DNA of 64,000 nucleotides, from contig OZ076409.1 in NCBI GenBank assembly GCA_964187785.1, positions 79,734,001-79,798,000 of the forward strand, given 5' to 3'. Source of the DNA: Amphiscolops sp. MND2022 (lineage: Eukaryota). A program made the translations under genes and the position numbers. Positions 1,117 to 44,302 of this stretch are shown here, one piece after another. Each line of letters opens with the position of its first letter. The first letter of the stretch is position 1. The notes below the pieces were generated by a model. The model worked only from the letters and a program-made list of their open reading frames with translations, searched no databases and was not told the origin of the DNA.

Positions 1117-1697
1117 TTTTAGTAGTCGGAAAAAACTTTCGACTACTTATGCAATCGTGCCGTTTTTCTCTCCCGACCTTTTCATGAAAATTTCAAATTT
1201 CTCAAAAACTGTCCATACGATTTTCATAAAATTTTGCACAGTCATTCTACACCCAAAGGGGCCCCTGCGTGCGCAAAGGCATCAAAATCGTTTGACTGGA
1301 TTGTAAGAAACATAGCCAAAATTAGCCCAAAAATGGCCAAAATAGCCCAAAAACAGCAATTTTTCGACTTTTTTCGATTTTCTCAAAAACTGTCCATACG
1401 ATTCGAACGAAATTTTGTACAGTCCTTCTACACTATATTATAGTCCTTTGTGTGTAATTTCATTAAATTCGTATTGCTGGGATGTGAGAAACATAGCCAA
1501 ATTAACCCAAATTTAGCCCAAAAACAGCCATTTTTCAACTGTCCATACGATTCGAACGAAAATTTCTACAGTCATTTTCTACACCATAGTATGGTCCTAT
1601 GTGTGCAATTTCAATAAATTCGTATGACTGGGATTGGAGCGAGTCAGAAGGAAAAAAGACCTAAGCCGACTCCTTTACCGCATATGCGGCTCTGGTT
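1117..1697 (+). mobile_element. Non-autonomous Helentron/HINE (DINE-1-like) element
   Basis: Starts in a T-run with 5' hairpin AGTAGTCG..CGACTACT. Internal imperfect repeats of AACTGTCCATACGATT. 3' sub-terminal AGCCGACT followed by palindrome CCGCATATGCGG. Confidence 0.55.
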
Positions 1698-1752
1698 TCA
1701 TTTTGCAAGTCAGATCGAATTTTAAATGTAGTAATTTTGAATAAAATTTCAG

Positions 1753-3053
1753 GAGGGCCTACAGCGAACAAAGACACGGTTGCCACTTCCAATACTACAA
1801 ATGAGATCGTAGCTGGAAAGTTTTCTGAAAATGAGTGGAACTTATTACTACAAGAAGAGGAGCATGAGTCTTTCTGTGCCGGAGTTCTGGAAGAACTTCT
1901 CCAGAAAACCATGGACCAATGCTATCAGAAGTACATTGAAAGACAACTGCTTCCTTTTACGGTAGAAACCGCAAAACAAGCTCTGTTGGAAATTGTGGAG
2001 TTGAGATTTTTGGAGAAAGATTTTGGAGAAGCAGAAAGTGGCTACACTTCTTGTTGGGTTGAAGACGAAGAACCAGACTTCGTTTTGCTTGATTCGTGGG
2101 CTGCTGGTGCGGTACCTTATTCAGTCGTAGCACAGGAAGTTCCAGAAACTGCGACACAATCTGAGCGATCGATGAAGACCTTAGAGGTCCCAGAGCCAAT
2201 TGAAGAGCAAGTTGAAATTGTCGAAACCGAGCAAATGGGAGAAGAGACGGTAGAATGCGAAGAGAAACCAGTTGATCAGGATTTGCCCGAAGACGTAAAC
2301 GAGAAAGAACAGGAGGAGAAACCTAAGAAGAAACGAAGAAAGTACAAGCCATACAGAGGTCCCATTGGTTCAGCTGGGGTTTCTAAGATGAGCGAGACGC
2401 TGTTTGAAACTGAGCTTCGATTGAATATTTTAGAACAAGTAGCAGCCGATGTAAACACTTCTCACGACATGCCGGCGAAAATGCAGCAAGCCATGAAAGC
2501 CCAAGCTGGAAGACCACCGGGTCTGGGTGATGTGCCAATAAAGGACATAGAAGTTGTGTTGATAGACAACGATCATCGAGGATCTCTGGAGCATGTACCG
2601 CCCACCATTCAAGTTCGTACCAACTACATGATCATTGATCCTGAAGTGGAAGCTGCCCAGCAACGTTTGATTGCTATGAGAACAGGTAGGTTCAATCCAA
2701 TCAGTATGGTGGCCCCGAAGAAAAAAGCAGAGGTCAAAGACAGAAGACAGACCCAAGAATTCAAAAACGAGCAGCAATTAACGTATGAGCGAGCTGCTTC
2801 AAATGGAGTTGCACCTGTGCCCCCACCTCTAATAGAGTCCATGGACGTTGCGCCCGGAGTAACAGTGCGGGAAGGTGGAAGAGTAAAACAAGGTCCCAAG
2901 AGGCTGCAGAAGCAAAGCACTTCCTCCAAGCTGTTTTCCGAATCAATGCTGCAACCCGTGAACAAAACCAAGGTGAAACAGACAATTTCTGTCAGTGAGA
3001 TAATCAGCCCATATGTGACCAAAACTAACAAACCTTTGCCGCCAATTGCTTAG
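1753..3053 (+). CDS. C2orf81: C2orf81-like (DUF4639) protein, large terminal coding exon; upstream exon not identified
   Basis: [56 protein letters not shown] resembles the human C2orf81 N-terminus as recalled ([55 protein letters not shown]). Acceptor TTTCAG ends at 1752; AATAAA near 3273. Confidence 0.8.
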
Positions 3054-16099: not shown

Positions 16100-19000
16100 A
16101 GTAGAAAAATTGCAAAAATTTACAATTTTTTACGTTTTATTGCAATTTTGTCAATTTTCGATAGATGTCGTGTATTAGAATGTTGAAAAGGTTCAAAAGG
16201 GCAAGAATTCGTTGTTCAGTAGTTCTTTATGAAGATATGAACGCGGTTTTTTTGGGAAGAAAAAGACCCAAAAATGACAAGAAAAAACAAAAATTTTCCG
16301 ATTTTTAACATTTTTATGCATTTTTTGTCATATTTTCGATAGACTTCGTGAATTAGAATGCTAAAAATGCACAACATGGCACTAATTTGTTGTCCAATAG
16401 GTTTCTCCGAAGAGATATTTGCTGTTTTCTGAATGAAAATGTCTCAAATTGACACAGAAAAAGACAAAAATCCCAAAAACTTTCGAATTTTGAAAAGATT
16501 TTATGCTTTTTTTTTTCAAAAATTTGACAGACTTTGTAGATTGGAACGTTGAAAGGGGTCAAAAAAGAAAGAATGTGTTGTCCGGTAGGTTTTTCCGAAG
16601 AGTTTATTGCAGTTTTTTTAGTGAATGTGTCCCAAACTGAAACCGAAAATGACAAAATTCTAAAATTTTCAAACTTTCAAAGTTTTTATGCATTTTTTGT
16701 TAAAGTTTCGACAGACTTCGTGAATTGGAATGTTTTTAAGGGTCAACAAGGAAAAAGTTGGTTGTCCAGTAGTCTTTTATGACGAGATAATTGCAATGTT
16801 CTGAATGAAAATGTCTCAAATTGACACCGAAAATGTCAAAATCTCAAAATTTTCCAATTTCTAAAGATTTTATGCATTTTTTTCCAAACTATTGACGGAC
16901 TTTGTAGATGAAATGTTGGAAAGCGTCAACGAAAAAGGAATGTGTTGTTTAGTAGGCTTTTCAGAACAGTATATATAGCAGTTTTCATAGCGAAAAAATC
17001 TCAAATTCAAATCGAAAATGCCAAAAACCCAAAACTTTCCATTTTTCAAAATGTTTGGGCATTTTTGTTTCGAAATTTGGAAAAACTTCGTGGATTGGAA
17101 TGTTTTAAAGGGTCAACAAGGAACAAGTTGGTTGTCCAGTAGTCTTTATTGAAGACATAATTCCACTGTTTTGAATGAAAATGACTCATATTGACACCGA
17201 AAATGACAAAAGTCCCAAAATTTACCAATTTAAAAAATTTCATCTATTATTTTTCAAATTTTTGGCAAACTTCGTCAACTGGAACGTTGAAAAGGGTCAA
17301 CAAGGAAAGAATATGTTGTCCAGTATGCTTAGAAAAGAGATAAATGCAGTTTTTTAAACAAAAAGTTTCCGGAATTGACACTGAAAAGACAACATTTCGA
17401 ATTTTTCTTCGAGTTTCACTATTTTTGTTCAATTTTTGTCAAAATTTTTCCATTTTTTAACGTGTTTATGCAAATTTTGTCATATTTTTGATGGACTTCG
17501 TGGATTAGAATGCTGAAAATGCACAACATGGCACTAATTTGTTGTCCAATAGGTTTCTCCGAAGAGATAGTTGCTGTTTTTTGAATGAAAAAATTGTCTC
17601 AAATTGACACAGAAAAAGACAAAAATCCCAAAAACATTCGAATTTCAAAGATTTTATTCCTTTTTTTCCAAACATTTGACAGACTTTGTAAATTGGAACG
17701 TTGAAAAGGGTCAAAAAAGAAAAAAAGTGTTGTCCAGGTGGTTTTTCCGAAGAGTTAAATGCAGTTTTTCTTTAGTGAAAGTATCCCAAACTGAAAATGA
17801 AAATGACAAAATCCCAAACTTTTCCAACTTTCAAAGTTTTTATGCGTGTTTTGTTAAAGTTTCGACAGACTTTGTGAATTGGAATGTTTTTAAGGGTCAA
17901 CAAGGAAAAAATTGGTTGTCCAGTAGTCTTTTATGACAATATAATTGCAATGTTCTTGTATGAAAATGTCTCAAATTGACACCGAAAATAACAAAATCTC
18001 AAAATTTTTCAATTTCCAAAGATTTTATGCATTTTTTCCAAACTATTGACGGACTTTGTAGATGAAATGTTGGAAAGCGTCAACGAAAAAGGAATGTGTT
18101 GTTTAGTAGGCTTTTCAGAAGAGTATACATAGCAGTTTTCTTAGCAAAAATATCTCAAATTCAAATCAAAAAAGACAAAATACCCAAAACTTTCCAATTT
18201 TCAAAATGTTTGGGCATTTTTCTCTCGAAAATTTCGAAAAACTTCGTGGATTAGAATGTTTTAAAGCGTAAACAAGGAACAAGTTGGTTGTCCAGTAGTC
18301 TTTATTGAAGACATAATTCCACTGTTTTGAATGAAAATGACTCATATTGACACCGAAACAGACAAAAATCCCAAAATTTACATATTTTAAAGATTTCATC
18401 TATTATTTTTCAAATTTTTGGCAAACTTCGTCAACTGGAACGTTAAAAGGGTCAACAAGGAAAGAATATGTTGTCCAGTATGCTTACAAAAGAGATAAAT
18501 GCAGTTTTTCAACCAAAAATTTTCCGGAATTGACACTGAAAAAGACAAATTTTCGAATTTTTCTTCGAGTTTCACTAATTTTGTTCAATTTTTGTCAAAA
18601 TTTTCCCAATTTTTAATGTTTTTATGCAGTTTTTGTCATATTTTTGATAGACTTCGTGGATTAGAATGCTGAAAATGCACAACATGGCACTAATTTGTTG
18701 TCCAATAGGTTTCTCCGAAGAGATAGTTGCTGTTTTTTGAATGAAAAAATTGTCTCAAATTGACACAGAAAAAGTCAAAAATCCCAAAAACTTTCGAATT
18801 TCAAAGCTTTTATTCCTTTTTTTCCAAAAAGTTGACAGACTTTGTAGATTGGAACGTTGAAAAGGGTCAAAAAAGGAAAAAATGTTGTCAAGTAGGTTTT
18901 TCCGAAGAGTTTATTGCAGTTTTTTTAGTGAAAGTGTCCCAAACTGAAAATGAAAATGACAAAATCCAAAAGTTTCCAACTTTCAAAAATTTTATGCGTT

Positions 19001-22000
19001 TTTTGTTAAAGGTTAGACAGACTTTGTGAATTGGAATGTCTTTAAGGGTCAACAAGGAAAAAGTTGGTTGTCCATTAGTCTTTTATGACAAGATAATTGC
19101 AATGTTCTAAATGAAAATGTCTCAAATTGACACCGTAAATGACAAAATCTCAAAATTTTCAAATTTCCGAAGTTTTTATGCACTTTTTTCCAAACTATTG
19201 ACGGACTTTGTAGATCGAATGTTGGAAAGCGTCAGCCAAAAAAGAATGTGTTGTTTAGTAGGCTTTTGAGAACAGTATATATAGCAGTTTTCTTAGCAAA
19301 AATATCTCAAATTCAAATCAAAAAAGACAAAAATCCCAAAACTTTCCAATTTTCAAAATGTTTGGGCATTTTTCTCTCAAAAATTTCGAAAAACTTTGTG
19401 GATTAGAATGTTTTAAAGCGTCAACAAGGAACAAGTTGGTTGTCCAGTAGTCTTTATTGAAGACATAATTCCACTGTTTTGAATGAAAATGACTCATATT
19501 GACACCGAAACAGACAAAAATCCCAAAATTTACATATTTTAAAGATTTCATCTATTATCTTTCAAATTTTTGGCAAACTTCGTCAACTGGAACGTTAAAA
19601 GGAATTGACACTGAAAAAGACAAAATTTCGAATTTTTTTCAAGTTTCACTATTTTTGTTCAATTTTTGTCAAAATTTTCCCAATTTTTAACGTTTTTATG
19701 CAGTTTTTGTCATATTTTTGATGGACTTCGTGGATTAGAATGCTGAAAATGCACAACATGGCACTAATTTGTTGTCCAATAGGTTTCTCCGAAGAGATAG
19801 TTGCTGTTTTTTGAATGAAAAAATTGTCTCAAATTGACACAGAAAAAGACGAAAATCCCAAAAACTTTCGAATTTCAAAGATTTTATTCCTTTTTTTTCC
19901 AAAAATTTGACAGACTTTGTACATTGGAACGATGAAAAGGGTCAAAAAAGAAAAAAAGTGTTGTCCAGGTGGTTTTTCCGAAGAGTTAAATGCAGTTTTT
20001 CTTTAGTGAAAGTATCCCAAACTGAAAATGAAAATGACAAAATCCCAAACTTTTCCAACTTTCAAAGTTTTTAGGCGTGTTTTGTTAAAGTTTCGACAGA
20101 CTTTGTGAATTGGAATGTTTTTAAGGGTCAACAAGGAAAAAATTGGTTGTCCAGTAGTCTTTTATGACAATATAATTGCAATGTTCTTGTATGAAAATGT
20201 CTCAAATGGACACCGAAAATGACAAAATCTCAAAATTTTCCAATTTCCAAAGATTTTATGCATTTTTTCTAAACTATTGACGGACTTTGTAGATGAAATG
20301 TTGGAAAGCGTCAACCAAAAAAGAATGTGTTATTTAGTAGGCTTTTGAGAACAGTATATATAGCAGTTTTCTTAGCGAAAATATCTCAAATTCCAATCGA
20401 AAGTGACAAAAAACCCAAAACTTTCCAATTTTCAAAATGTTTGGGCATTTTTGTTTCGAAATTTGGAAAAACTTCGTGGATTGGAATGTTTTAAAGCGTC
20501 AAAAAGGAACAAGTTGGTTGTCCAGTAGTCTTTATTGAATACATAATTCCACTGTTTTGAATGAAAACGACTCATATTGACACCGAAACAGACAAAAATC
20601 CCAAAATTTACATCTTTTAAAGATTTCATCTATTATTTTTCAAATTTTTGGCAAACTTCGTCAACTGGAACGTTAAAAGTGTCAACAGGGAAAGAATATG
20701 TTGTCCAGTCTGCTTTGAAAAGAGATAAATGCAGTTTTTTAAACGAAAAGTTTTCGGAATTGACATTAAAGAAGACAAAATTTCGGTTTTTTTCGAGTTT
20801 CACTATTTTTGTTCAATATTTGTCAAAACGTCGATAGATTTCGTGGACTAGAATGTTAGAACGCCTAACATATGGGCTTTCGTCTCGAGATAAGTTCAAT
20901 TGGTATAAGGAAATTGCCTCAAGTTGACCATGAACTGTCAAAAAATTTGATAATTTTGTCGTTTTTGATGCATTTTCAATACTTGTTCCAAAAGATTTTG
21001 TTCTAAGTTCCAACACATTGAACTCAACAACAAAAAAAAACGAGCTTTGCATTACAGTTTTTGAGGAGAACGTTGCCGCGTTTTGCTTCAAAAACACTTC
21101 AGAATGACTCCTAAGCAGTCGAAAAATTTCAACAACTTCGTTTTTGAGGAACTTGTGTACTCTTTGAATCCTTTTGAAGTCAGAATGCCGGAAGACGTTC
21201 AACAAAGACTGGATGCATAATCCAGTAGGCTTTTAAAGGAATATCTGCAGTCTTATGTTGGAAAATAGCTCGAACTGGCCGCAAAAATTTTCAGTGAATT
21301 TTTATTTGAGGTTGGAAGATTTCGATTTAAAAAGTTTCTAAAAGTTCGAGATGATAAATCTAGGTCCGAAGCACGTTTCTCAAAATCCCTTTTTTATGGT
21401 CGAAAATTTCCTCAAAAGGACCCAAATATTGGAAAAACTGAGAAACTTTTATGTTCTTTTACTATTTTAGGCAGTTTTCTGAACAATTTTTGAGCCACTC
21501 CCTTGCACAAAATGGTATAAAAAACTCAACAATGTTTAATCCGGGTATCTCCAGTAGGCAATTTTGGAGAGAAAACTGCACTTGTTTGTTGGAAGTTGCT
21601 TAAAAACACCCAAAATTCCGTGAAACAACAAAAAAGCACGTTGTTTGACAAACTAATCCCGTTTTTTGTTCAAACCACGAAAGTTTTTGAAGAATAGAAC
21701 CTCCAATTGACCTGAGCGTTGAAACAAAAGGGTATTCGGTATTAAAAACGCAAATGGGGAAAAAGTGGGATGAAATTCATCAAGTTTACAACAACAGTGT
21801 CAAAGTTTCCGAATTTTCGTTATTTTAGACAACATTGTCCCAAATTTCGACCCTTTTCGAAAATAAACGTCAAACAGAAATACCAAAGGCTCAGGATTGA
21901 AATGTGTAGCTACCGGTAGTGTTTCGAAAAGATATCAGATAAGTTCATTTGCCCAACTTTCAAAAACTTTACTTGAAAATGCAAATCTCGACATTATTTG

Positions 22001-26300: not shown

Positions 26301-27716
26301 TGTGGACACATGCATGTCCTTTTGCTATCTTTGACCCTTAAATATGACCCGACCTATGTCGTTCACGGATGGTTATTTTTATTTTTATCATTTCCAATTT
26401 TGACCAACGATGATACGTATGAATCTAATTGTGATTTAATTTTAATGTTGACTGTCAGTGACACGAATGAATTAACTATAGAAATGTATAGGAACGTGCT
26501 CTCGGAGTTGTTACAATTTAATCAGAAAAAGGTTGTTTGGCTGCTTTTATACCCTCATAGAGTCGTTACTTTGCTCGTTTGGAAATGTTTAAAGAACGTA
26601 CTGAAAACATAGTCTGTCTTTGTAATTTAATAGAAAACGAACAAAACAATGACATTAGGTAGCACAAAACAAGTTTGGACAAAAGTGTATCTTCATCGAT
26701 TTAAACAATTTTAAAAGCGTTTGAAGCGTCATTCCTCCGCTGCTTTCCTACCCTGAATTTGATTCTGTAAGGGCGCCGAGGAATCCTTTTGACCTCCGTC
26801 CACGTGGCTTGTTACGTCATTTGATTGAAACATCTCAATTCGCGAAATCTGTGGCTTGCACTTCTGCACTCTGTTCAACAATCGCCCTGGGCGAGTTTCG
26901 AGCTATATGAAACAAGAGAACTGTATATAGATGTTTAGGAATACGCTTCCGGAGTTGTTACAATTCAATCAAAAGAATGTTGTTCATACGCTCGTGGAAT
27001 CGTTCTAGAATTGTGTAAAGAACGAACGGAATAATCAAATCAAATTTTATAAGTATAATGAACAAAACAATTATGGATATCTCATTTTTGAAAACAAAAG
27101 TGCGAAAAAAACAAATTGGGACGAAGCAGAACAGAATTATCATGAAATCAGAAAGTGTGTATGTGTGCGTGTAAATCAGTGTGTCGATTCTTTATCGACT
27201 TATTTAACTTGGGAAAGCGTTTAACGAATTGAGAAAAGCTTCTGAAGATTCCAGAACGACTTTAATGCAAATTATCTACTTGTTTGAAGAATCCAGAAAA
27301 GTGTACAACAATTCACAAAAGTGTTAAAGAATTCACAAAAGTGTTCAAGAAATGACAAAATGCGAAGAATTCTCACACCAATGTTGCTACCTGTGCAGCA
27401 TAGATTATCATTAATATGAAGAATCCACGAAGCATTTTTTGCATTTCTGAAAAAAATCATTTTTGCACTGCGATCATTAGTATGTGGATTCTTCAATCAT
27501 TTTGGCGGCACGCTCAGTTTCTTTGAAGTGCAGATTTTTGTGAAATCTTGAAAATACATTTTTGTAGGTGCGAACATCAACTTTTGTCAATTCTTGAAAA
27601 AATCAGAACTTACCTTATTGGCGTCGTAATGGACTCACAATGAGATTCTCTTCTATACGAAAAATCCACGTGAATTGCGGCTGTAGCATTGGACTTCAAA
27701 TCAACGTTTGGAACAC

Positions 27717-30700
27717 TGTAGGATTTTTGACTTTTTCGCCTGAAACATGGTGTTTATTAAATTTTATGCCCTCAGCAAGGTAGATGATCCGGGTGTGATA
27801 TCTATGAAATTAAAGATAACAGTAAGTACTTCAAGTACCTCGCCTTATTGTTTAATGTCAATACTATTGTATTCAGCCCCGCGGACAACCAAAATAACCA
27901 TTCTTAGCTGCTATGAAGCGGCCGCGCAACGTATTAATGCAGTAATACGGCCGCCACCACTCAGAACTGTGTAGGAAAATTCTAATCGAAAAGAAACTTT
28001 GACATCGAATTTCTCGGCAATTATTGCTAATACAAGAAAAATTAAACCACCGAAATGTTCCTATTTGACCTGACTACGTGTTGAGTAAACATTTAAGAAC
28101 TTTAAACCAACGTATCCCCACAAAAATTGAACCTAAAGTCATCATTGACTGAGAATAGAGATTTAGCCAAATTGCTATATTAATACATGTGTTTGAGGGT
28201 AAGCGAGTGTGCGTGAACAGCATAGAATGCAACTCAGCTAAGCGTGTCAGAAAGCGAAAGGAATGAAATTAAGAACGCGCTGTGAGTGGCTGTACACATA
28301 GCTAATAAGAAAACGGCCGCCGCACACTTTGGAAATATCCCCTCTCTTAATGCAAGTTAAAAATCAAAACGCGATTTCTCAAAGATGGAAAAAGATATCG
28401 ACAAACGATTTTCAGCATTCGACAGCCCGTCCAAAGGAAAGTTTAGGTTGAGATTATGAGCCCCGTGCAATGACGAGAACATATTTGGGGGGAGCTTTGA
28501 AAATAAGTGCGTATAAAATGTTGACGATTTTCCAAAAATGAGTTTCCTTTAAAAATTTCGTGTGATCGCTATAGTTGTAAAAAAAGGTTCGGATATAGCT
28601 TAAATTAAAGATAAATGAATGCCCTAACTGTTGTCAAATGGAAAATAAATAATAATCAGTAGTTTTTGAGAACTGAGCCAGCAAACGTTAAAAACAGCCC
28701 TAAAATGGCCAAATTAGCCGTTTTTCGCATGTTATCGCTTAGTACTCAACGAGTAAGCGCACAATAGCCGCCCCCTTCACAGCGTACTTGTGAATTGAAG
28801 TGGAGGAGTGAATAGAATAATAAATAGAGTGCTGCGGCGCGCTAGCGAAGAACACCCAAGATTTCAAAGTCGTGATTTCTTTCTGCCGATAGGGATGTCG
28901 ACCTACCAAAATGCTAACTCCCCCCCTGCACGTTTTGGGCGATATCGAGCTGAAACTTTCAGGGTAGACGCACAAGACTCAGGCGCACAGCGTTTAGCGG
29001 GAGCGTTTTTCCGAAAAATGCCCTGGTTTCGAGATATTGGCCTCCAAAATTGAAAGTCCAGACATAAAAATTGGGAAAAAGACTACTTTCAGAAAAAGTA
29101 CTATCAAATTTTGTTGAGAAAAGATAGAGACTTTATCTAAAGTGCAAAATACTCCTAATGGCTTGGGCTAGCGATGTATATAAGCCTCCACTCTGTATCT
29201 TTCAAACTGACTGAGTACGAGCCCTCCAAAGTTGAGAGTTTTGCAAATGTCATCACGTGTTTTTTTTCTACCAAACTTTAAGGGCGTTTTACACCGTTAG
29301 TGAGTTGAAATAGAAAGATAATGATTGATAACGTTTTTGTAGCCCTTGGATTGTTCTGTCGAATAGTTAATTTGGTTTCAGCCCCCGGTGATCGGAACAG
29401 CAAGTTTTTGCCCTTAGAATGCGTAACACGAAGATCGACTTTTCAGGACATAAAATAAGTTCGCCTTTTGGGTCATTGTAAATTGTAGAGAGTTATTTCC
29501 TTCAGCCAGATTTAGCTAGAGAGTTGTCAGGAACCGTGTGGGAAAAAGAGACCTGGCAAAAGGTGCAAATGTCAATCAGTAAGCCGAAGTTCAAGTCGTG
29601 CTTACAAAAGTGGGAAAAACTGAGTCAGTAGCACCGCCCCTTAAATTCTATCGAAAACGAAGTAAAACCACCAGTCATGATTGACAAGGAGGTGGAACCA
29701 GGACTGACTTGTGATGAGAAAATGTACTCCTGATGAATTTTTAGTACCGAAGTAGGGAGAACTGTCTTACTCAACACTTAGTCAGGCCCCCAAAAAGGAA
29801 AGATGACAAATTACGAATACTCAAATGACTAAACTGCCGAAAAAGTAACTTTGGCCGAAGTGTGCGCCATTTTAGCGACACACACCGTGAGTTACAACCT
29901 AGAGAACAGTTTGACTTATTGTTGTGTTGGCGATTTTTATCTGCAGCTACAAGTGAGGTGGAACTCCAAGACCTTGTGTTGAGATAACTTCGGAACAGGA
30001 TTTTGTCGTAAGTGAGGCGGAACTCCAAGACCTTCTTCAAGATCCTTAGCTTCAATCGTGAGTGAGGTGGAACGCCAAGACCTTCGTTGAAGCGTTCCAA
30101 TCGTGCGTGAGGTGAGACTCCAAGACCGTCGTTGGAACAAACCGTTGCAATCGCGAGTGAGGTGACTCCAAGACCTCCGTTGTGGCACCCGTTCTCGAAC
30201 CCTGTTCAATTGTGCGTGAGGTGAGAATCCAAGACTGTCGTTGAACATTCTTGTACTCTTATTCGTGCGTGAGGTGTTGGACTCCAAGACCGTCGTTAGG
30301 ATACAATTGCTTTCACTCCAAGACCGATAGAGATTTGCGGCGAGTTGCTTTGTTCGATATATTACTGATATCACTCCCTATCCTCACGGATAACCAAAAT
30401 CAACACCTTGCTAGAACCCTGCTTATTAATTGAATGTGTTATATGCCTTCTAATTTTAGCTGTAATATTCACCGTATTTATCGATGTTACCTCATAGTAC
30501 ATTCTATTATTCGTGGTTGTGAAATTGTGTTTGTGTCTATTAATCGTCTTATATTATTATTTTGTATTATTTGATGTTCAAACTGCTCTTTTCATTCGTG
30601 AAAAGACCCCTCTCGTATTTTTAACAGCCTAAGAGTAGCGAGACAAACCCCCGAGAAAGAGACCTGATAGCAAAGATAGTCAAAGAACGTGATTTCCTAG

Positions 30701-30879
30701 TCACACTTACTCCCACCGTCTTCAGCTGTATTGATTCGTCTTTGCATTTGAAGTTAAAATAAATTTATGTAGATACTCAGCCATTTCTTGTCTCGTGATT
30801 GGTACCTACGGGTTTAATTGAGTGGTAGTGGAGCAATCTTATGTATTGTTAAAGCTACCGTAATTCCAAAAATCTTACA
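27717..30879 (+). repeat. 5' LTR (3163 bp)
   Basis: TGTAGGATTTTTG...CAAAAATCTTACA (12/13 inverted termini); direct repeat of 39947-43099; AATAAA at 30758. Confidence 0.97.
29953..30325 (+). repeat. Repeat-spacer array in the 5' LTR (7 full + 1 partial GTGAGGTGGAACTCCAAGACC-like repeats, unique spacers)
   Basis: Repeat starts at 29953, 30012, 30062, 30107, 30157, 30216, 30269; partial at 30315; periods 45-59 bp. Confidence 0.9.
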
Positions 30880-30880
30880 T

Positions 30881-30898
30881 TGGCGCTCCTGGGTGGGC
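30881..30898 (+). promoter_or_regulatory. Primer-binding site, probably tRNA-Asn
   Basis: TGGCGCTCCTGGGTGGGC begins 1 nt after the LTR. Its reverse complement GCCCACCCAGGAGCGCCA resembles the metazoan tRNA-Asn(GTT) 3' end (human ..GCCCACCCAGGGACGCCA). Confidence 0.75.
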
Positions 30899-30990
30899 CA
30901 TCTTTGCGTCTTTGCTATTTACTCTTTCTTTTTTTTACTTCTTTCCCTCTTCTACCCTTCACCCTTCGCAGTTGCTGAACCCTTCCCCTG

Positions 30991-32303
30991 ATGTCTGCGG
31001 ACGACGAAACCGAGCAGCAGCAATCACCCACTTGTAAACCACCCACTTGTAAGTCTACTAGCTTTTCCCTCATAGGATCGGCCGCCATGACAAAAGAACG
31101 TAAACAAGATGCTTACAGGTGGAAGAGAGATTTAGAAAAAGAAAAGAAACGTATAAAACTCGAAGAAGACCTTGATTCTGATGATTCCTTAGCACCCGAA
31201 AATGAATCTAGGCGAAAACAAAAACCTCTGTACGAAAAATCACCGTTTAAACCAGAAAAATTCCCCAGTAAAGATTACAACCGTTGGGAAAATTGGGTAA
31301 AATATTTCATGGCAGTTGCGAAAGCCAATGGGTGGAATGATAGTCAAAAAATTGCCGCAATGCCCACTTGTTTAACTTCTTGGGCCATCGAAAAATTTGA
31401 AACTGTCGCCCGAAGGTATATTACAAAAGAACCTGGTTGTTATCACCCCCGGTTTGACGAACTCCTTGAAGTTTTAAAACCTAAAATGCAACAGTACCGC
31501 AGCCAGCGAGCTACACGGTCCGAGTTTAAAGCTGTTAAACAATGGGAAAATGAAGACTTAAGAGAATACTCGAGACAAGTACGCTATCTCGCTGATATAG
31601 CTTTTCCCGAAAAACCGCTCCGGTAAAGGGAGCGGGACATGCGAGATCAATTTATCGAAGGAGTACTTGACTCGCGAATACAAACTAAATTGTATGAAGA
31701 CGAGCGTGACCGTGATTTGCAAAGAGCAAAAGAACTCGAAATAATCCACAAGACTCAAGAATCGAGAAAAGACCGGAAATTCGATAAACTCCGCTACTCC
31801 CAAAATGAATTCGGGTATTCCGATACAGTAAGAGCTGGCTATTCAAACAATAATCAAATTGACAAAAAAATTGCAGCTATCGAAACCTCGTTAACCAACG
31901 TGGCAAGTCGTTTTGATCGTTTTGAAAATTCAATTTGTCAACACATCTCCAAGCATACTGAACAAATCTCGAAATTGGCCAATTCAACAACCATCCAAAT
32001 GGAAACGCTGGTACAGAGTGTAAAAGACATGTCATCAGCGATTGTAGGAGCGTTGGAAAGCTCGCAACGGCCGGTTGGTGGGCAACCCCAGAACTAGCAA
32101 TCTCTTTGTTCGCAACCCCCTGTAACCCCTACCCCTTTTGTACATCCGACTAGGGTTGCACCGTCAGGACATGTAAACATTACGTACCCCCCTCCGGAAA
32201 AAGCAGAATGCTTCCGGTGCAGTCTAATAGGACATTTCGCAAAGGATTGTCCGGCGCGATCCAAACAACATCCTTTAAACTACCATCAGCCGAGTATGCA
32301 GTA
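30991..32303 (+). pseudogene. gag: gag with two in-frame premature stops (31624, 32095)
   Basis: ORFs at 30991 and 31639 share a frame. Capsid-like WENWVKYFMAVAKANGW..MRDQFIEG. Read-through gives CCHC knuckle CFRCSLIGHFAKDC at 32209-32250. Confidence 0.9.
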
Positions 32304-32350
32304 GCAGGTTCTATTCGTGCTTGGGATATTATCCCCTCTCCTACTGCTAC
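32274..32350 (+). promoter_or_regulatory. -1 ribosomal frameshift signal (gag-pol)
   Basis: T TTA AAC in the gag frame at 32274-32280; the -1 frame is the open ORF ..FKLPSAEY. Downstream stem CCGAGTATG/CGTGCTTGG. Confidence 0.75.
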
Positions 32351-34434
32351 AAACTTTCCTAAAACGAATCCGCTTATACGCCCTAGGTCTAGGAGTGACG
32401 AAAGTCGTTTGCGACAGCAAAACCGAAGTAGGCGTATTGATCCGGAAGTTTGGCGACAAATGAGTGAAAAATTTGTCCCCAGAGGGTTCTGTCCGAAGGA
32501 CCCAAATCTTTCCGTTGCAAATAATCCCCCTCAATCAACGGTTTTTGAAGATAAACAAGTCGAGCCCGGTTTGGTAAGAATTTGCCCCAAATCTGGCGTA
32601 GGCTTTCCGAAACAAAACCTGCTGGACGCAGAAGAACTAATACCGATCACCCATAGCAAGTATGTTCCAGGCGCGACTTTTTTTAGTTCCCTACGAAGTA
32701 AAAAATTTCCGATGTTGGGCCGTTATAGATACCGGAGCGAGCAGAAGTTTAATGAGCTTAGAATTAGCACAGGCGATCGGTAATCCGATAACTCCTCACA
32801 ATAGTCGTCTGACCGGCCCCATAGCTAACGAAATGCCGACAAAAGGCATCATAAAAGCAGAAGTAAAAATAGGAACACTTGTAGCCATGGATGAATTTGT
32901 GGTTGTAGAAGATCTACATCCAGAGATATTAGTCGGATTGAAATTCTTAATGGAAAACCAATGCACGGCAGATATGGTCGAAGAAAAGCTAACTATTCCC
33001 CAAGACGACGGTTCAATCGTCAAGGTACCGATGCAAATCTTAGGAGGGCTCATCCTTCCTTCGGAAGAGGACGCCTTTGTTTCGAAACGGTACCAGGCCC
33101 TGACACCGTGTCAGCGGCTTCCGAAACTAACGAAAAATTCGAGCAGGATGTTGACGAAATTTTAAATTTAGCCACCCCTGGTCTCGGAAACCCCGAAATA
33201 AAGAAAAAATTACGAGTGCTTATTCGTAATTATAGAGACGTGTTTTCCCTGCCCGTGGACCCGTTAGGAACTGCGGTAGGAGTAGAACACCACATCGACA
33301 TAGGCGACGCGAAGCCGTTTAAAATATCGCCCAGACGGAGGGTTATACGAATGTCTAAAAACGCCGTTTGGTTTGACGAACGCCCCGCCGACTTTCCAAA
33401 GGAATATGAACAACATATTCAAAGACGACCTCTATAAACACGTGCTGATATTCCTAGATGATGTACTAACGTTTAGTAAAACTCCGGAGGACCATTTGGA
33501 GCATTTGGAAAAAGTGTTTAGAGTATTGCGCAAGTCTGGCTTGAGGCTTAAACCAAAGAAATGTAACTTGTTCCGCACTGAAGTCCACTGTCTGGGCCAT
33601 GTGATAATTAAGGAAGGAATCCAACCAGACCCAAAGAAGTTGGCGGCAATTCGCGAATGGGAACGACCGACTGACGTTACGGGAGTCCGCTCATTCGTCG
33701 CGTTCTGCAATTATTACCGGAAATTCGTCCAAAACTTTGCAAAAGTGGCTCGCCCACTTTATTTATTGACTAGCAAAGGCCTCAAGTTCACCTGGACCGA
33801 AGAGCATGATCAAGCGTTCCAAACGCTGAAGAAAAAGTTGTTGGAGGCTCCGATCCTAGCCTTCCCAAATTTTGAACTCCCGTTCATTATTGATACGGAT
33901 GCTAGTGAGACTGCGCTCGGCGCAGTACTGTCTCAAGTGATCGACGGAACGGAGTATACGATCGCCTTTGAATCTCGAGTTTTCACCAAAACCGAAGTAA
34001 ATTATGCCACGACCAAACGAGAAGCACTTGGATTAATCCAAGCGGTTCAATGGTTCCGACCGTACATATACGGATCAAAATGCATTATCCGAACAGACCA
34101 CGCAAGCCTGCAGTGGTTGTTTAGGCAAAACGCAGATGGAATGACCTTCCGGATGGTTCAAAAATTGCAGGAGTACGACTACCAAATCGTACATCGACCC
34201 GGCGACAAGCATTGTAATGCGGATGGTCTCAGCAGGAGACCAAATGACGTACCACTGTGGCTCCCAGGCGAAGAAGAAACACTAAGAGGTCCGATCCCGG
34301 AATTTACTGAATTTGACAGTGCCCTGTTCGAAGCCGAACGCGACCTACAGGCCGCCAGCACTAAAGCTCGAGAGACGAACGATTTGTCGGAGGATATAGC
34401 CCGGCATTTCAAAATGAAACTCGCTCACCCTCCA

Positions 34435-34860
34435 AGAGAGGTAGTCCGCTATCGCGAAGCAGATTTCCTCGAATCACCAGATTCTTTGGTCTTGTGCATC
34501 GCCGCAGATAAGAGAGTGTCTACCGCTCCTATGAAGTCTTTCATTAGGTCGTATTCTCATCTATCACCCCTCGGAGAATCGGTGAATCGAGTGGGGGGAT
34601 TTCTGGTATACAAGGACGAAAACCATGAGCGTTACGTATATCTATTGATTACGAAACCCCCAATAGAAGAAGTAGCAAAAAATGACACTTTGAAAGTCTG
34701 TCTACTGAGGATGAAAGAACATGCTAGTTCGCACGGAGTCCCTAAACTTGCGATGCCCCGAATAGGCTGTGTTGAGGATGAATTGGAATGGGCAAACGTA
34801 GCGATTTGTCTAGAGGTCGTTTTCCAAGATTCGTATGTTACGATTTCGGTGTATACACCT
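34435..34860 (+). other. TARG1/OARD1-class macrodomain within Pol
   Basis: DSLVLCIAAD..RYVYLLITK..MKEHASSHGVPKLAMPRIGCVEDELEWANVAICLEVVF..ISVYT parallels human OARD1 as recalled: [57 protein letters not shown]..ITVYT. Confidence 0.88.
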
Positions 34861-37156
34861 CGAAATCAAGTACTCAAATACCCTCCCACTTTGCCTAGGC
34901 AAAGTACTTCCACCTCCACAAGTAAAGATCTCGCCTGCTCCGTTGCTACTCCGGAAGAAATGTTAGCAGCAGAGGAAGTAGACGGGCATATTTCGTGGAC
35001 TAGATCAGATAGTGATTTGGCTTATGGCCAACGAATGGATAGAGGCATGGGATTATTATTTCGGGAAATGGTACGGAATGGCATTCGAATAGATGGTTCT
35101 GTAGAAAACCTAGGACCTAACCCAATTCCTCGTGAAGTCGCGTTAACATGGAGTTGTCCAGAGGCCCTGGAGCTCTGGAGTAATTGGGAACACCTCGCCC
35201 TCGCGAATCGGGTTCTTTATAAAAGGTGGGACCCCGGTAATCGTGGTCGAGAGATCTGGCAAGCCGTAGTACCGGCGAGCATGCGAGACGAAATATTGTA
35301 TCAGTTGCATGACTCCCCTCTGAGCGGAGGTCATTTTGCAGTAGAGAAAACCATGTCACGAATTAAACAGAGTTTCTGGTGGTCGGGGCTTAGGCCCAGT
35401 GTCGAGAAATATATTGCAAAGTGTACCCGCTGCGCCGCGTGGTCAACCGCGGGAAAAACTCGGAAAGCTAGTCTGCAAACAATCGATGCGAAGGCGCCAT
35501 TTAGTATTGTAGCAGCGGGTATTTTAGGACCGGTAACACTAGCGAAGAAGTCACAGGCACGATACATCTTGGTCATTTCCGATTTGTACACCAAGTATGC
35601 GGTTGCCGTACCTTTGAAAGACATGACGTCTAAAATTGTGGCCACTTCTTTAGTCGAAGAATGGATCTTAAGGTTTGGGGCACCCGATACTTTGCACACT
35701 GATCAGGGAACGAACTTTAATAGCGAAGTGATGAAAGACATTTGTCAGGTCTTTATGATCGACAAGACTAGGACTTCTCCGTACCACCCTCAGGGAAACG
35801 GCCAGGTTGAACGTTTTAATCGAGTGATTGCCGATACCATATCGAAATTTTGCGCAGAAAAGTCTCAGGAAAGGGACATGTATTTGCCCTATGTTACTTT
35901 CGTGTACAATACGACCGTGCATAAGACTCTCGGCACTACTCCGTTTTCCATGTTGTATGGAAAGGAAGCTCAATACCCGATTGACCTATACTATCCAAAA
36001 CCTCCCGGAGATCCCCGATTGGAGTTAGATGAGATGGGTACCGAGTTAAATGAAAAATTGTACGAAGTACATAGTCACGCGCAAATGACTATGGGAAAAG
36101 AACAACGCCGACAGAAGGAATATTATCAGAGAAAAATCCACAGAGGACCATTTAATCCAGGAGACTTAGTATGGTTACTTGAACCACATCGAGCGAAATC
36201 GCGAAAATTTTATCTCCCCTGGCGCGGTCCATACGAAGTGTTGAAACGAACGAGCGAAATGAATTATCAGATTTGTAAAAAAGGCTTCCCCGACAAGTGG
36301 CAAAATGTCCATTTCAACCGCTTAAAACCGTACATGGGTGAATCACCTCCGAAACGCTCCGAACGGTTAGCCTCCAAGCCGACTCCGAACTTCGAGGAAC
36401 TAGTTGAGGAATCCGATCCCTCCGATACCGAGACCGAAGAACAAACATTCCATGTGTACCGCCCTACTTCGGCGGAAACACAAGCCAATAAAAATCAGCC
36501 TCACGTGTCGTTTCACGACGGCCCCCGCGTGATAGATGTAGAAGACGAGGAGAATACTCGTCTGACTAACAGCCCCTTGTATATAAATGTCCCCGAGTGT
36601 TCCAATGCGGAGTCGTCCCCCGTATATGAAGAAATACACGAAGGAGAGGGACAGCCCCTCCCAGATGACGACGACTCGAACGCAAGTAACCACTCAGACT
36701 CGCTACTCCTAGAAAATACACGGAATCGTCGACCGCCAATCCGCTTCGGCATCGACGAGTACGTGGTACATCCAAAATAACATCAGAGTCTTCGGATGAA
36801 AGTCAGGTGAGTTGAGTCATCCGAAGTAAAGAAGCTCATCATTCGCTTAGCCGTTCACGAGCATGCCTAAGCGAATTATCGTAAGCTCGGACCGTTAATT
36901 AGAAGGTGCTGAGTCATAACTGTAGCGTCACTGACGTCGCTACCGACTCCCCTTCATACTTTGCTTTAACCTCCGCTTAAACAGTCGCTAAAATAGAAAC
37001 GTTGCAGTTTCAATTCCTGCAATCTATTTAACCGGCCTTTGCCTCAAGTATTTATTGTCGTTGTGATCGTCCAACTAGTAACCCGCTTACCTCATCCTTT
37101 TTCGCTTTTAATTAGTTTATATCATCCGAATTTGGAATCGCTAGTATAGTCCTGAA

Positions 37157-39400
37157 ATGTTCTGTGTTTACTTTAATTTTTCTCGCTCACTACGTTTTGG
37201 GAGGAGAAGACGCATTCGACCCATTCGAGTTCCAGAGGAGACTCAATCAACCAGGGTTTGTAAATGGCACCCATTCAATTTCTGGCGCAGCGTTCACTCC
37301 CGAACCTCCCGTCGTACTCGTTAAGTCGATCAAAACTATTTGGACCTATATTCCGTTTCCTCAAATCCCTCAGTTAGATCCAGAACCGTTAAACGAAATC
37401 TTGGATAAAGCTTTAGCTCGATTGGTGTCCCTGGACATACGCATGTTTTCACGAGAATGTGCAGACACGCATTTGTTTAATTATTGGAAAGATTTTCTGC
37501 GCGTTAATTTAGCGGAAATTTTTCAAGCCACCGGATGTTTCAACACGACTGGCTTGCAATGCGAAAATCGCTCACCGTTTTTCTCAACCATACCGTAGAC
37601 GATATCCCCCTAGAAAAACCGAATCGTTACGCTAGATCAATTGTCGGGGCCCTTGCAGGATCTATGTTGGGAAGCGAGTTAGCACATCTCTTCCTAAGAC
37701 CGATATTTGGCCCCATACACGAGACGCTCTCCTGCTTCGTAGATGACCTGATCCCCTTTGGATCAGTGTGCCGGAGTAAAGAGAGAAAAATTATCGAGGA
37801 TTTAGCAAGAGAAATTAAAATCCTGCAGGACGAAGTAGTATATTTAAGGTCGGAATTGTTAGAAACCGTCACAGTGAGAATGCCGGCCGACGTCGGAAAC
37901 CGCGAGTTGCTAGCGTTGAAACAATCCCTGGACGAAAATATACAAATGTTAAATAATACGGTAAATGGAGCGATCGATGAGGTATATGATTATGTAGAAA
38001 GGGCGGAATGCGTAGTCAAATTGACTCAAGACCGACACCGTAACACCTTAATAATGGCCGCCGCGTTTCAAACTCTAACCGTGCAATATCGCCGGATCGT
38101 GAATGAGATCAATCAACGCCGCATCTCTCTGTCAAACATGGCGTCGATGTTACAAGAGGCCATCTCTTCTTTAGTCCATGGCTATTTGCCTATTTCTTTA
38201 ATCCCAACTGCAACGCTGAAAAAGATCCTTGATTCGTACCACGTCACCGGATGAAACGAGGCTATTCCGAGGAAATTAATTGCGGCGTACTATTCATTCG
38301 AAATCGTCAGAGATGCATATGTTACGAACGACGGCTTGCATATGCTATTAGAAATCCCGATGTACGCCGGACACGGAATTCACGAGGTGTACCGTGCTAC
38401 GGCCATCCCGCAACCTATTCCAAATACGGAACGGGCAACGCAATACCAGCTTGCGAAAACCCACTTTCTAATGTCGTGGGACAAGACGAATTTTGCGGAA
38501 GTCCTTGAACAAGAGTTGTCGACGCATTGTTGGGGTTCTCATCGACTTAGGCTATGCAAGCAACCCTTCTCTACTACTAAGTCGCAGAAAACAACATGTC
38601 TAACTGGCCTGTTCTTTAACCTCCCCGCCACTGTACTAAAACTGTGCGCTCAGGAGGTAGTGGCCCTTCCGCAACATCCCCAGGCCATCTATTTATATGA
38701 CTCCACGTATTTACTAACGTCAGCGAAAGGGGATTTTACCATGCAAAATGTGACTTCTACTGTGGATTATCGAGTACCAGACTGTCAAAGCTGCCTAGTG
38801 AGACCTACTTGCGACGGAAGATTACAACTCCCCAATGCAGGTTTGTTTCTTACCCCGGACCCGATATCTTGCGCCGATAACCAAGTTAGCGAAATTGTCA
38901 GAATTATGCCGACTCCTTTATTGAGACCCCTGTTTGAAAATCTAAAAGAGTTAGAAGGAGTGATTCCTCCCTCCTTAATGGGAGACGTACACCAAGAACT
39001 TTTGTCACACTTGAAATTAAATTTGGCAGGCTTGCCAGACAGGGCTATTACCGAAGAAATGGCAGATGCTATAGCTAAGCCCTTTTTAATCGAAGTAGAA
39101 AAAGTTCACTCCACCGTCCTAAAGAAAGTGTGGACAGATGTTATTTTACCATGTGTTGTTACTCTGATTATTTTAACTTTCTTGGGAATTCTATGCTGGC
39201 TGGTAAAGAGGGGACAACTGTACATCATGCGTGCCTGTATACAACGACTGCTGAGAAGGGGAGACGAAGATGAACCAGAAGAACAACGATTGTCCAGAAT
39301 TGCAGATGAGCTACAACAACTTTCTGCCTCCACCCGAACCGATGGGAATGCGAAAACTCCTGATCTTCCCCAAGGAGAAAAGAAGCCCCGATCCAAGTAG
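37157..39400 (+). pseudogene. env: env, class I fusion glycoprotein (errantivirus/baculovirus-F-like); frameshift ~37530, in-frame TGA at 38252
   Basis: Signal-peptide-like N-terminus; RYAR cleavage site then hydrophobic SIVGALAGSMLG; heptad repeats; GYLPISLIP and LEIPMY..VYRATAIPQP; Cys-rich region; C-terminal TM VILPCVVTLIILTFLGILCWLV. Confidence 0.85.
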
Positions 39401-39933: not shown

Positions 39934-39946
39934 AAGTAGGGGGGAA
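39934..39946 (+). promoter_or_regulatory. Polypurine tract
   Basis: AAGTAGGGGGGAA directly before the 3' LTR. Confidence 0.9.
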
Positions 39947-42900
39947 TGTAGGATTTTTGACTTTTTCGCCTGAAACATGGTGTTTATTAAATTTTATGCC
40001 CTCAGCAAGGTAGATGATCCCGGTGTGATATCTATGAATTTAAAGATAACAGTAAGTACTTCAAGTACCTCGCATTATTGTTTAATGTCAATACTATTGT
40101 ATTCAGCCCCGCGGACAACCAAAATAACCATTCTTAGCTGCTATGAAGCGGCCGCGCAACGTATTAATGCAGTAATACGGCCGCCACCACTCAGAACTGT
40201 GTAGGAAAATTCTAATCGAAAAGAAACTTTGACATCGAATTTCTCGGCAATTATTGCTAATACAAGAAAAATTAAACCACCGAAATGTTCCTATTTGACC
40301 TGACTACGTGTTGAGTAAACATTTAAGAACTTTAAACCAACGTATCCCCACAAAAATTGTACCTAAAGTCATCATTGACTGAGAATAGAGATTTAGCCAA
40401 ATTGCTATGTTAATACATGTGTTTGAGGGTAAGCGAGAGTGAAAACTCCGCCGTGTGCGTGAACAGCATAGAATGCAACTCAGCTAAGCGTGTCAGAAAG
40501 CGAAAGGAATGAAATTAAGAACGCGCTGTGAGTAGCTGTACACATAGCTAATAAGAAAACGGCCGCCGCACACTTTGGAATTATCCCCTCTCTTAATGCA
40601 AATTAAAAATCAAAACGCGATTTCTCAAAGATGGAAAAAGATATCGACAAACGGTTTTCAGCATTCGACAGCCCGCCCAAAGGAAAGCTTAAGTTGAGAA
40701 TATGAGCCCCGTGCAATGATGAGAACATATTTGGGGGAGCTTTGAAAATAAGTGCGTATAAAATGGTGACGATTTTCCAAAAATGAGTTTCCTTTAAAAA
40801 TTTTGTGTGATCGCTACAGTTGTCAGAAAAAGATTCGAATATGGCCTAAATTAAAGATAAATGAATGCCCTAACTTGTGTCAAATGGAAAATAAATAATA
40901 ATCAGTAGTTTTTGAGAACTGAGCCAGCAAACGTTAAAAACAGGCATAAAATGGCAAAATTAGCCGTTTTTCGCATGTTATCGCTTAGTACTCAACGAAT
41001 AAGCGCACAATAGCCGCCCCCTTCACAGCGTACTTGAGAATTGAAGTGGAGGAGTGAATAGAATAATAAATAGAGTGCTGCGGCGCGCTAGCGAAGAAAC
41101 CCCAAGATTTCAAAGTCGTGATTTCTTTCTGCCGATAGGGATGTCGTTCTACCAAAATACTAACTTCCCCCCTTCGCACGTTTTGGGCGATATCGAGCTG
41201 AAACTTTCAGGGTAGACGCACAAGACCCAGGCAAACAGCCTTTAGAGGGAGCGTTTTTCCGAAAAATGCCCTGGTTTCGAGATATTGGCCTCCAAAATTG
41301 AAAGTCCAGACATGAAAATCGGGAAAATGACTACTTTCAGAAAAAGTACTATCAAATTTTGTTGAAAAAAGATAGAGACCTCATCTAAAAAGCAAAATAC
41401 TTGTAATGGCTTGGGCTAGCGATGTATATAAGCCCCCACGCTGTATCTTTCAAATTGACTGAGTACGAGCCCTCCAAAGTTGAGAGTTTTGCAAATGTCA
41501 ACACGTGTTTTTTTTCTACCAAACTTTAAGGGCGTTTTTCATTGTGAAGGAGTTGAAATAGAAAGATAAAACTAAATAACGTTTTTGTAGCCCTTGGAAT
41601 GATCTTTCAAATGGGAAACATCTGGTTTTTGCCCTTAGAATGCGTAACACGGAGATTGACTTTTCAGGACATAAAATAAATTGCCTTTTAGGTCATTGTT
41701 AATTGCAGAGAGTTATTTCCTTCGGCCAGATTTAGCTGAGAGAGTTGTCAGGAACCGTGTGGGAAAAAGAGACCTGGCAAAAGGTGCAAATGTCAATCAG
41801 TAAGCCGAAGTTCAAGTCGTGCTTACAAAAGTGAAAAAAACTGAGTCAGTAGCACCGCCCCTTAAATTCTATTGAAAACGAAGTAAAACCACCAGTCATG
41901 ATTGACAAGGAGGTGGAACCAGGACTGACTTGTGATGAGAAAATGTACTCCTGATGAATTTGTGGTACCGAAGTAGGGAGAACTGTCTTACTCAATACTT
42001 AGTCAGGCCCCCAAAAAGGAAAGATGACAAATTACGAATACGTAAACGACTAAACTGCCGAAAAAGTAACTTTGGCCGAAGTGTGCGCCATTTTAGCGAC
42101 ACACACCGTGAGTTACAACCTAGAGAACAGTTTGACTTATTGTTGTGTCGGCGATTTTTATCTGCAGCTACAAGTGAGATGGAACTCCAAGACCTTGTTT
42201 TGAGATAACTTCGGAAAAGGACTTTGTCGTAAGTGAGGTGGAACTCCAAGACCTTCTTCAAGATCCTTAGCTTCAATCGTGAGTGAGGTGGAACGCCAAG
42301 ACCTTCGTTGAAGCGTTCCAATCGTGCGTGAGGCGAGACTCCAAGACCGTCGTTGGAACAAACTGTTGCAATCGCGAGTGAGGTGACTCCAATACCTCCG
42401 TTGTGGCACCCGTTCTCGAACCCTGTTCAATCGTGCGTGAGGTGAGAATCCAAGACCGTCGTTGAACATTCTTTTACTCTTAATCGTGCGTGAGGTGTTG
42501 GACTCCAAGACCGTCGTTAGGATACAATTGCTTTCACTCCAAGACCGATAGAGATTTGCGGCGAGTTGCTTTATTCGATATATTACTGATATCACTCTCT
42601 ATCCTCACGGATAACCAAAATCAACACCTTGCTAGAACCCTGCTTAACACTTGAATGTGTTATATGCCTTCTAGTATTAGCCGTAATATTCACCGTATTT
42701 ATCGATGTTACCTCATAGTACATTCTATTATTCGTGGTTGTGAAATTGTGTTTGTGTCTATTAATCGTCTTATATTATTATTTTGTATTAATTGATGTTC
42801 AAACTGCTCTTTTCATTCGTGAAAAGACCCCCTCGTATTTTTAACAGCCTAAGAGTAGCGAGACAAACCCCCGAGAAAGAGACCTGATAGCAAAGATAGT

Positions 42901-43099
42901 CAAAGAACGTGATTTCCTAGTCACACTTACTCCCACCGTCTTCAGCTGTATTGATTCGTCTTTGCATTTGAAGTTAAAATAAATTTATGTAGATACTCAG
43001 CCATTTCTTGTCTCGTGATTGGTACCTACGGGTTTAATTGAGTGGTAGTGGAGCAATCTTATGTATTGTTAAAGCTACCGTAATTCCAAAAATCTTACA
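39947..43099 (+). repeat. 3' LTR (3153 bp)
   Basis: Direct repeat of the 5' LTR, followed by TSD AACAC. Confidence 0.97.
42174..42546 (+). repeat. Repeat-spacer array, 3' LTR copy
   Basis: Same units and spacer order as 29953-30325, with a few substitutions. Confidence 0.9.
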
Positions 43100-43492
43100 A
43101 ACACGTCGAGAACTTTCACTAACTATTTATCGGAAATAGTTTGTCGTAACAAGGGAGCAAAAAAAATTTCAAAATGCCCTCAAAACCTTTTTGTCGTGTT
43201 TTCCTTGATATTATTCGTCACAGATTTCAACTACAGAAACAGTAGCTATACGGCAGAGTTCCGTATGAAAAATAAGAAGCTTTTTGTAAGTTCATTGAAA
43301 AAGCCACAAAGCGCTCCATAAATGCAAAAAGTTCTTTTCAAAAAATTTTTTGAATGAAAGTGCCATAAATGAATCAAATCTTTTATAACAATTGTCAAAA
43401 CTTTTAAGACAAATTGAATCATCTGAATTTTTGTGTCACCTTCGTAGTGTATCTATCAGCTACGCTCGAACCCTGAAATTATGTTGTCGCTA

Positions 43493-44302
43493 CCCTGGTC
43501 GAGAAAAAATGCGTTCCTTGCAAGGATCTTGCAAGATCCTTGTAAAAATGCAATTACTTGTAAGATCTTCCAAGGAAATTTGTTCCTTGCAAGATCTTGC
43601 AAGGAAATGTTTTCCTTGAAAGACCTTGCAAGGAAATGTTTTCCTTGAAAGATCTTGCAAGGAAATTTTTTCGTTGAAAGATCTTGCAAGGAAATGCTTT
43701 CCTTGCAAGATTCTTGAGTTCAATGTACTTCATACTGAGAAATTATGTTAAGGTAGTCGTGATTTGAGAATAATGTCAAAAACGTTAATAACTATTATTT
43801 CAGAAAGGTAATTTAACAAATTGAAAAATAATTTCAATCGAAACATTATGCACAGTCTATTTTCAAATCAATAACTGGTACATAACACAATTGGTTGGAA
43901 AAAATTTTCAGAATACTCTGAAACTGTATTTTAAATGTTGCGTCACTGAAATGTACTACTACTTTTCAAATAACTTCACTAAGATCACACTTTTAGAGAT
44001 ATTTTCTAGAGTTTGCATCTTTTTGGTGGTTGAATCCTCTAGTAAGTAAGCCCCGTTCTGTGACAGAATCTAATAGTCACGATGCAGTAGTCAACTTGAA
44101 GTCAAAAACAATGAATATAAAAAATAATAAAAATTGTCGAGAACCTTCCACGAAATTTTTCTCCTTGGAAGAATCTTGCAAGGAAATTTTTTTCTTGCAA
44201 GATTCTTGCAAGATGTCTTGGAGAAAAATGCATTATCTTGCAAGACCTTGAAAGAAAATCTTGCAAGATCCTTGCAAGGAACGCATTTTTTTTCAACCAG
44301 GG
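43493..44302. mobile_element. MITE with CCCTGG..CCAGGG long inverted termini and TA TSD
   Basis: ~45-bp terminal inverted repeats; TA on both sides; many TCTTGCAAGR subrepeats at both ends. Confidence 0.85.

Follow-up and report, generated by a model that had tools for sequence, protein, structure and literature searches.

The LTRs of a retrotransposon in the 64,000-nt stretch of DNA analyzed here (the window) each carry a row of short, near-identical repeats separated by dissimilar spacers, which raises the question of how a CRISPR-shaped array comes to stand inside an LTR and what it does there. Searches of the 1.07-Gb genome reveal that the array is one of two unrelated cassettes (A, which holds the array, and B) that occupy the same fixed slot in a Ty3/gypsy LTR and are exchangeable there. 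The element that carries it in both of its ~3.2-kb LTRs has an env-like gene and can be recognized as a Ty3/gypsy retrotransposon by the TG...CA termini of its LTRs, its target-site duplication, its primer site and its polypurine tract (Table 1), and Pfam confirms the pol domain order typical of gypsy elements. Compared with an atlas, the env-like gene bears a weak resemblance to baculovirus-F-like clusters (score 0.95, low recognition value), the family occurring on 14-43% of the cluster members. No tRNA gene matching the primer-binding site was found among 38 loci. The two LTRs differ in patches, with only 59% identity at window positions 29317-29416 and 97-100% in many other blocks, a pattern that suggests conversion or recombination during or after insertion. 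Two further features of the internal region were noted: a long pyrimidine tract between the primer site and the start of gag (window 30900-30990), which is conserved in the family and resembles a splice acceptor in some copies only, and an insertion in pol between RNase H and integrase (window about 34200-35200), which is common to the clade, has no Pfam match and may represent a macrodomain, judging from a motif.

Table 1. Features of the array-bearing retrotransposon (window coordinates).
Feature	Position	Strand	Remarks
5' LTR	27717..30879	+	3163 bp, TG...CA, 94.9% identical to 3' LTR
3' LTR	39947..43099	+	TG...CA
Target-site duplication, 5 bp	27712..27716, repeated at 43100-43104	.	LTR flanks
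Primer-binding site	30881..30897	+	Common to whole clade
Polypurine tract	39935..39946	+	From sequence
gag-like region	30991..32783	+	Split up into open stretches; nothing found in Pfam
pol: protease, RT, RNase H, integrase	32641..36780	+	gypsy order, split over frames
env-like third gene	37116..39400	+	Three open stretches; no Pfam match
Candidate polyadenylation signal AATAAA	30758..30763	+	Near LTR end; also in B-type LTR; putative function
Cassette A (exchangeable slot)	29914..30310	+	Short leader, 7 cores, 6 spacers, terminal spacer
Seven 19-23-bp cores	29953..30291	+	Two conserved blocks, short variable linker
Constant flank	30311..30345	+	Common to A- and B-type LTRs; contains single 'partial repeat' 30315-30325
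Conserved anchor motif	29900..29913	+	A/B cassette homology stops at 29913; probable U3/R border near 29908
Cassette A and constant motif, 3' LTR copy	42135..42546	+	Same set as 5' LTR

The array is real and largely as the initial annotation had described it. Seven cores of 19-23 bp start at 29953, 30012, 30062, 30107, 30157, 30216 and 30269, are 86% alike among themselves and are separated by spacers of 38, 29, 24, 29, 40 and 32 bp, in agreement with the reported range of 24-40 bp; the same core set recurs in the 3' LTR, where the array had been said to be preserved at 42174-42546. The partial repeat that had been counted with the cores is present, but it lies outside the exchangeable cassette and is a single constant motif found with both cassette types. 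The description of the spacers as unrelated holds for their 9-25-bp middles (39% identity vs 36% in shuffles, p = 0.065) but not for their edges, which match pairwise at 57% and 68% (45% and 38% in shuffles, p ≤ 0.01). As the edges are related and only the middles unrelated, the repeated unit is better regarded as a sequence of ~36 bp with a variable middle. A 3-base linker between the two core blocks occurs in 121 of 165 units, counting the six commonest types alone, so that the 21-bp form of the core dominates; in young copies the linker ranges from 1 to 5 bases.

The original argument that this is not an evenly decayed minisatellite is borne out at orthologous positions in 10 older copies, where the two core blocks are 90% and 87% identical, the spacer middles 81% and the flanks 82% and 76%. 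Constraint on the cores, if real, would act on sequence; higher core conservation can also stem from conversion between repeats, and alignment can favor the cores. The exact two-block core pattern has 455 matches in the genome, whereas the reversed control has none. Outside these arrays, neither strand of the window has a match resembling the core, and inspection of 41 LTR ends from other families that have this primer site in common revealed neither the core nor any array. Matches to the core in scans of public sequences (one viral and three metagenomic) were each single and isolated, and were treated as chance.

CRISPR arrays have repeats and spacers of similar size, are accompanied by cas genes, acquire spacers in a polar manner and match protospacers elsewhere. 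Cassette A resembles them in repeat and spacer sizes, and differs in that it shows no cas genes, no polar acquisition and no protospacers and has related spacer edges. A memory or guide cassette, whose spacers would be acquired from other sequences and cut into small RNAs, is suggested by the outward look alone (21-bp repeats, 24-40-bp spacers and probable transcription), and we consider it extremely improbable. No cas-like family was found by Pfam among the 17 window ORFs of 150 aa or more, and Rfam gave no match at the family threshold (two matches far below it lie outside the array). The spacers are inherited in fixed order: the 30 best-scoring copies, which were chosen by similarity, have the same spacers, and older A-type copies contain 2 to about 10 units with their order conserved. 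The polar spacer change that had been proposed as a diagnostic was not seen, as the first spacers are the stable ones; an older A subfamily with 8 units has its first five spacers in common with the younger one, differences and gains are internal, and single units have been lost (in L120, L122 and L123, single A units by recombination). The suggested search for foreign spacer content was equally negative for spacer 5, which has 112 genome matches at ≤2 mismatches: among the matches listed, the 80 exact ones coincide with array positions, the near-matches that were fetched are arrays and no protospacer was seen (12 of the 112 stand outside that list). Spacer middles of 14 bp or more produced two weak stray matches against the fetched loci. 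The initial conclusion that this is not a true CRISPR is thus upheld.

The slot itself is defined by comparison with sister elements. In all 18 newly fetched sisters, which were selected from a pol search (150 of 925 candidates scored) with known A-type copies excluded, the LTR aligns with that of the window at positions 1-2197 (~87%) and again from ~2590 (~78%), while the middle is unrelated. Cassette B consists of ~190 unique bases and 1-12 copies of a 29-30-bp hairpin unit, and both cassettes end in the same constant flank. An exact search of the genome finds the constant flank 578 times, the B junction 410 times and the A junction 76 times, with 0 matches for the controls; 20 LTRs that have the flank and neither exact junction proved to be 18 B-like variants and 2 of type A. 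In a sister family (L056) the same slot holds a non-repetitive filling, and a motif related to the constant flank is present. Since B, the commoner allele, lacks the core, the core is not essential.

The proposal that the array units fold as stem-loops with variable loops is not supported. The whole array folds no better than shuffled sequences (z = +0.88), single units vary from z = −1.8 to +1.9, and in the covariation analysis suggested at the outset, carried out on 165 distinct units, neither of two candidate stems covaries, the paired counts being those expected for independent columns. A structured RNA or ribozyme array was accordingly rejected. Pairing of cassette A with B-type RNA was also discarded, as it is at chance level, including a 9-base match to the B anchor that had caught the eye. 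The unit of cassette B (L058:4110-4461, L097-L113; 29-30 bp) has a 5-bp stem and a 4-base loop with compensatory changes between subfamilies, one stem pair being G-C in 23 and C-G in 17 of 44 unit variants, which are related to each other. Cassette B thus appears to be a better candidate for RNA structure than the array that was first flagged, and, if A and B share one job, the compensatory change would point to RNA rather than DNA.

The slot is likely to constitute the first 400 bases of the element RNA, within R, with a start at ~29908. This position is suggested by the conserved anchor immediately before the slot, a switch in A/T skew and strand-specific depletion of ATG. The anchor is common to two sister families with far more distant pol sequences, and it is here, at 29908, that the cumulative A-T skew reaches its maximum. 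ATG is the most depleted of the 64 trinucleotides in slot A (0 vs 5.0 expected) and ranks 2-3 in cassette B; in four sister LTRs it ranks 1-3 in the sequence that follows the matching anchor. The depletion begins at the anchor and is specific to one strand, as CAT is not depleted; ATG counts upstream of the anchor are normal apart from a low count in the sister LTR L076 (rank 4). A TATA-like motif at 29177 was considered as the promoter, since it is conserved in a sister family, yet ATG is normal upstream of the anchor, and we provisionally prefer the anchor. The possibility that the slot is an intron was set aside: no slot-deleted copy was found with the one pattern used, and the ATG depletion argues that the slot is exonic.

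Comparison of young A-type LTRs indicates that the cassette has moved between backbones. Their arrays are 97-99% identical to that of the window, while other parts of the LTR are 70-95% identical, and in four out of five that were tested an A tract is set in a B-type backbone. In these (L031, L034, L035 and L054) the sequence upstream of the slot is mostly 90-100% identical to B-type LTRs, and that across the slot is 95-99% identical to the window. Left breakpoints lie near 29700, 29780 or 29870, and right breakpoints near 30520, 30655 or past the LTR end; the idea that the left breakpoints all coincide with the U3/R border was dropped because their positions vary. A entered B backbones with at least four breakpoint combinations, which then multiplied, and in a gag tree the five long A-type copies sampled sit within the B-type clade. 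As the exchanged copies were found by searching for A, the tract that they have in common must include A, and the mosaics therefore demonstrate exchange, not selection. Strong selection as the cause of the 97-99% array identity was likewise rejected, as recent exchange accounts for it. Template switching by reverse transcriptase between co-packaged RNAs is established retroelement biology, and the cassettes may have been exchanged by this route, with crossovers only in the homologous flanks. In wheat elements it has been suggested as a route of LTR transfer (PMC9744471).

Cassette A sits mostly in 5-kb copies without pol. Of the A-type LTR pairs, 21 of 30 are less than 8 kb apart, compared with 4 of 34 B-type pairs, which were taken from among the first 100 of the 410 listed; the corresponding Fisher p of 2e-6 is overstated, as the events are not independent and a small number of founders may underlie the link. 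In the short copies examined the gag-like frame is retained, whereas most or all of pol is missing. In the older A subfamily all four fetched pairs are short, and their LTRs are 87-93% alike, compared with over 99.8% in the young ones. One locus (L119) holds a tandem short element with three LTR copies. A short A-type copy (L037) has its leader and gag from a sister family (L056 type), so that short copies take gag from different helpers.

What, then, does the array do? Of the Drosophila arrays that offer a comparison, those cited below lie in the 5'UTR, and Idefix has an insulator in its LTR. Of 49 5'UTRs of Drosophila LTR elements, 19 are described as tandemly repeated (PMC8872304), that of gypsy contains 12 degenerate Su(Hw) sites within 350 bp (PMC7168160), and the known leader arrays include the Su(Hw) insulator of gypsy, those of ZAM, Tirant and accord, and the copia enhancer (PMC7168160, PMC8872304). 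By analogy with the Su(Hw) sites and with the repeats of ZAM, Tirant and accord, the best reading of the array remains a multi-site regulatory module. We tentatively favor, as a reading with a fair amount of doubt attached, that the conserved 21-bp cores are repeated sites for a host DNA-binding regulator tuning transcription or chromatin from the leader, with the array in an exchangeable slot. The array would have grown as a ~50-bp unit was duplicated and the middles then diverged; cassette A is inherited as a block, and the host regulator would bind the cores as putative sites in leader DNA. The restriction of the core to this family (0 of 41 LTR ends elsewhere) and the single public matches count against a DNA regulator, as do the lack of the core in the commoner cassette B, the compensatory change in the B unit, the variable linker of the young copies and the 5'UTR location of the Drosophila arrays cited. 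The cores may instead act in RNA, as single-stranded sites that could be bound by Gag, U1 snRNP or a host RNA-binding protein and would favor packaging, export or read-through at the 5' LTR poly(A) signal; we regard this as rather unlikely, although several observations are in its favor. The slot lies at the probable 5' end of the RNA and is repeated at the 3' end, an action in RNA would benefit pol-less parasites most, and A is enriched in short copies in both the young and the older subfamily, albeit perhaps through few founders. The compensatory pair in the B stem also fits, as does the presence in slot A of five donor-like sites (1.4 in shuffles, none on the other strand), matched to the splice-donor consensus. 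However, B, the commoner allele, has no donor-like sites, the antisense match of slot A to the B-type element is not beyond chance, no slot-less, spliced-looking LTR copy was found by the one pattern tried, and in B-type copies the AG that resembles an acceptor ahead of gag is not preserved as YAG. The role considered for U1 has a parallel in foamy viruses, where U1 bound upstream of the poly(A) signal is used (PMC3694450).

It is also possible, and in our judgment unlikely, that the leader is simply tolerant and hypervariable, with slippage growing and shrinking the repeats, conversion homogenizing the cores and avoidance of upstream ATGs as the sole constraint. The slot does accept unrelated fillings (A, B, several B variants and the repeat-free sequence of L056), the B units vary in number from 1 to 12, single A units are lost, and the spacers contain degenerate internal sub-repeats, with CGTT ~6-fold over the LTR background. 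Yet two A subfamilies with ~80% similarity have both retained 7-8 units, the order unchanged, though deletions arise readily, the cores change about half as often as the middles, and the multiplied breakpoint combinations described above, in copies found via A, speak for more than tolerance. A more far-reaching proposal would make cassette A a selfish allele of the leader, whose array, acting in RNA, would give gag-only parasites an advantage over their helpers in packaging or copying; A and B would be non-recombining alternative alleles, a small supergene kept by conflict among parasite, helper and host silencing, with A repeatedly captured by helpers. We hold this to be distinctly improbable.

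Several components of this system are already known, namely leader arrays, LTR mosaics, CRISPR-shaped plant cassettes and repeat-rich LTR regions, and the general layout of LTRs has been described (PMC3601003). Like the Drosophila gypsy-type arrays in the accounts cited above, the present one spans roughly 350-400 bp and combines degenerate ~20-bp sites with unlike spacers in what is probably the leader. It differs from those described for gypsy, ZAM and Tirant in lying inside the LTR, and hence at both ends, not between the 5' LTR and gag; its slot also has a non-homologous alternative allele. HERVH LTR7 subfamilies likewise arose through duplication and repeated recombination of LTR modules (PMC8912925), whereas the block here is without detectable homology to the cassette that replaces it, is located downstream of the probable start and tracks with pol-less copies. 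Wheat Angela and Sabrina also have gag-bearing short derivatives and LTR sequence moving between partners, for which template switching or conversion has been proposed; the parasites portrayed there grow to resemble the helper LTR, while here a distinct module is typical of short copies and is found in long ones too (PMC9744471). The SIRC cassettes of Arabidopsis share the CRISPR-shaped repeat-spacer look, the tie to mobile elements and the lack of cas genes, but they are from a plant and have a proposed MITE origin, and cassette A is a fixed part of an LTR (PMC10342631). Maize Sirevirus LTRs have repeated motifs in a fast-evolving, palindrome-rich region; those repeats precede the TATA box and fold into hairpins, unlike cassette A, which folds no better than shuffles (PMC4728375). 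Retrosat2 likewise has LTRs that exceed 3 kb and include a long R region (PMC3485330).

The open-access literature searched yielded no description of a single LTR slot in which two unrelated leader cassettes alternate. The novel point is that two such cassettes are swapped at a sharp boundary by the likely start site, one of them typical of pol-less parasites. This natural allele pair on near-identical backbones offers a means to ask what the first ~400 RNA bases do for expression, silencing and parasite-helper competition, and it provides a worked case of CRISPR-shaped arrays arising in eukaryotic mobile DNA without spacer capture. Elsewhere in the window, positions 1665-3053 and 56520-63011 contain a DUF4639 exon together with several long open frames that have at most a weak zinc-finger match. 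A satellite of ~185-bp monomers with a higher-order period of ~1155 bp lies at 16100-20830, with related copies near 9100-9500, and a MITE-like element at 43491-44304 has terminal inverted repeats of 47 bp and, internally, palindromic tandem repeats of 29 bp.
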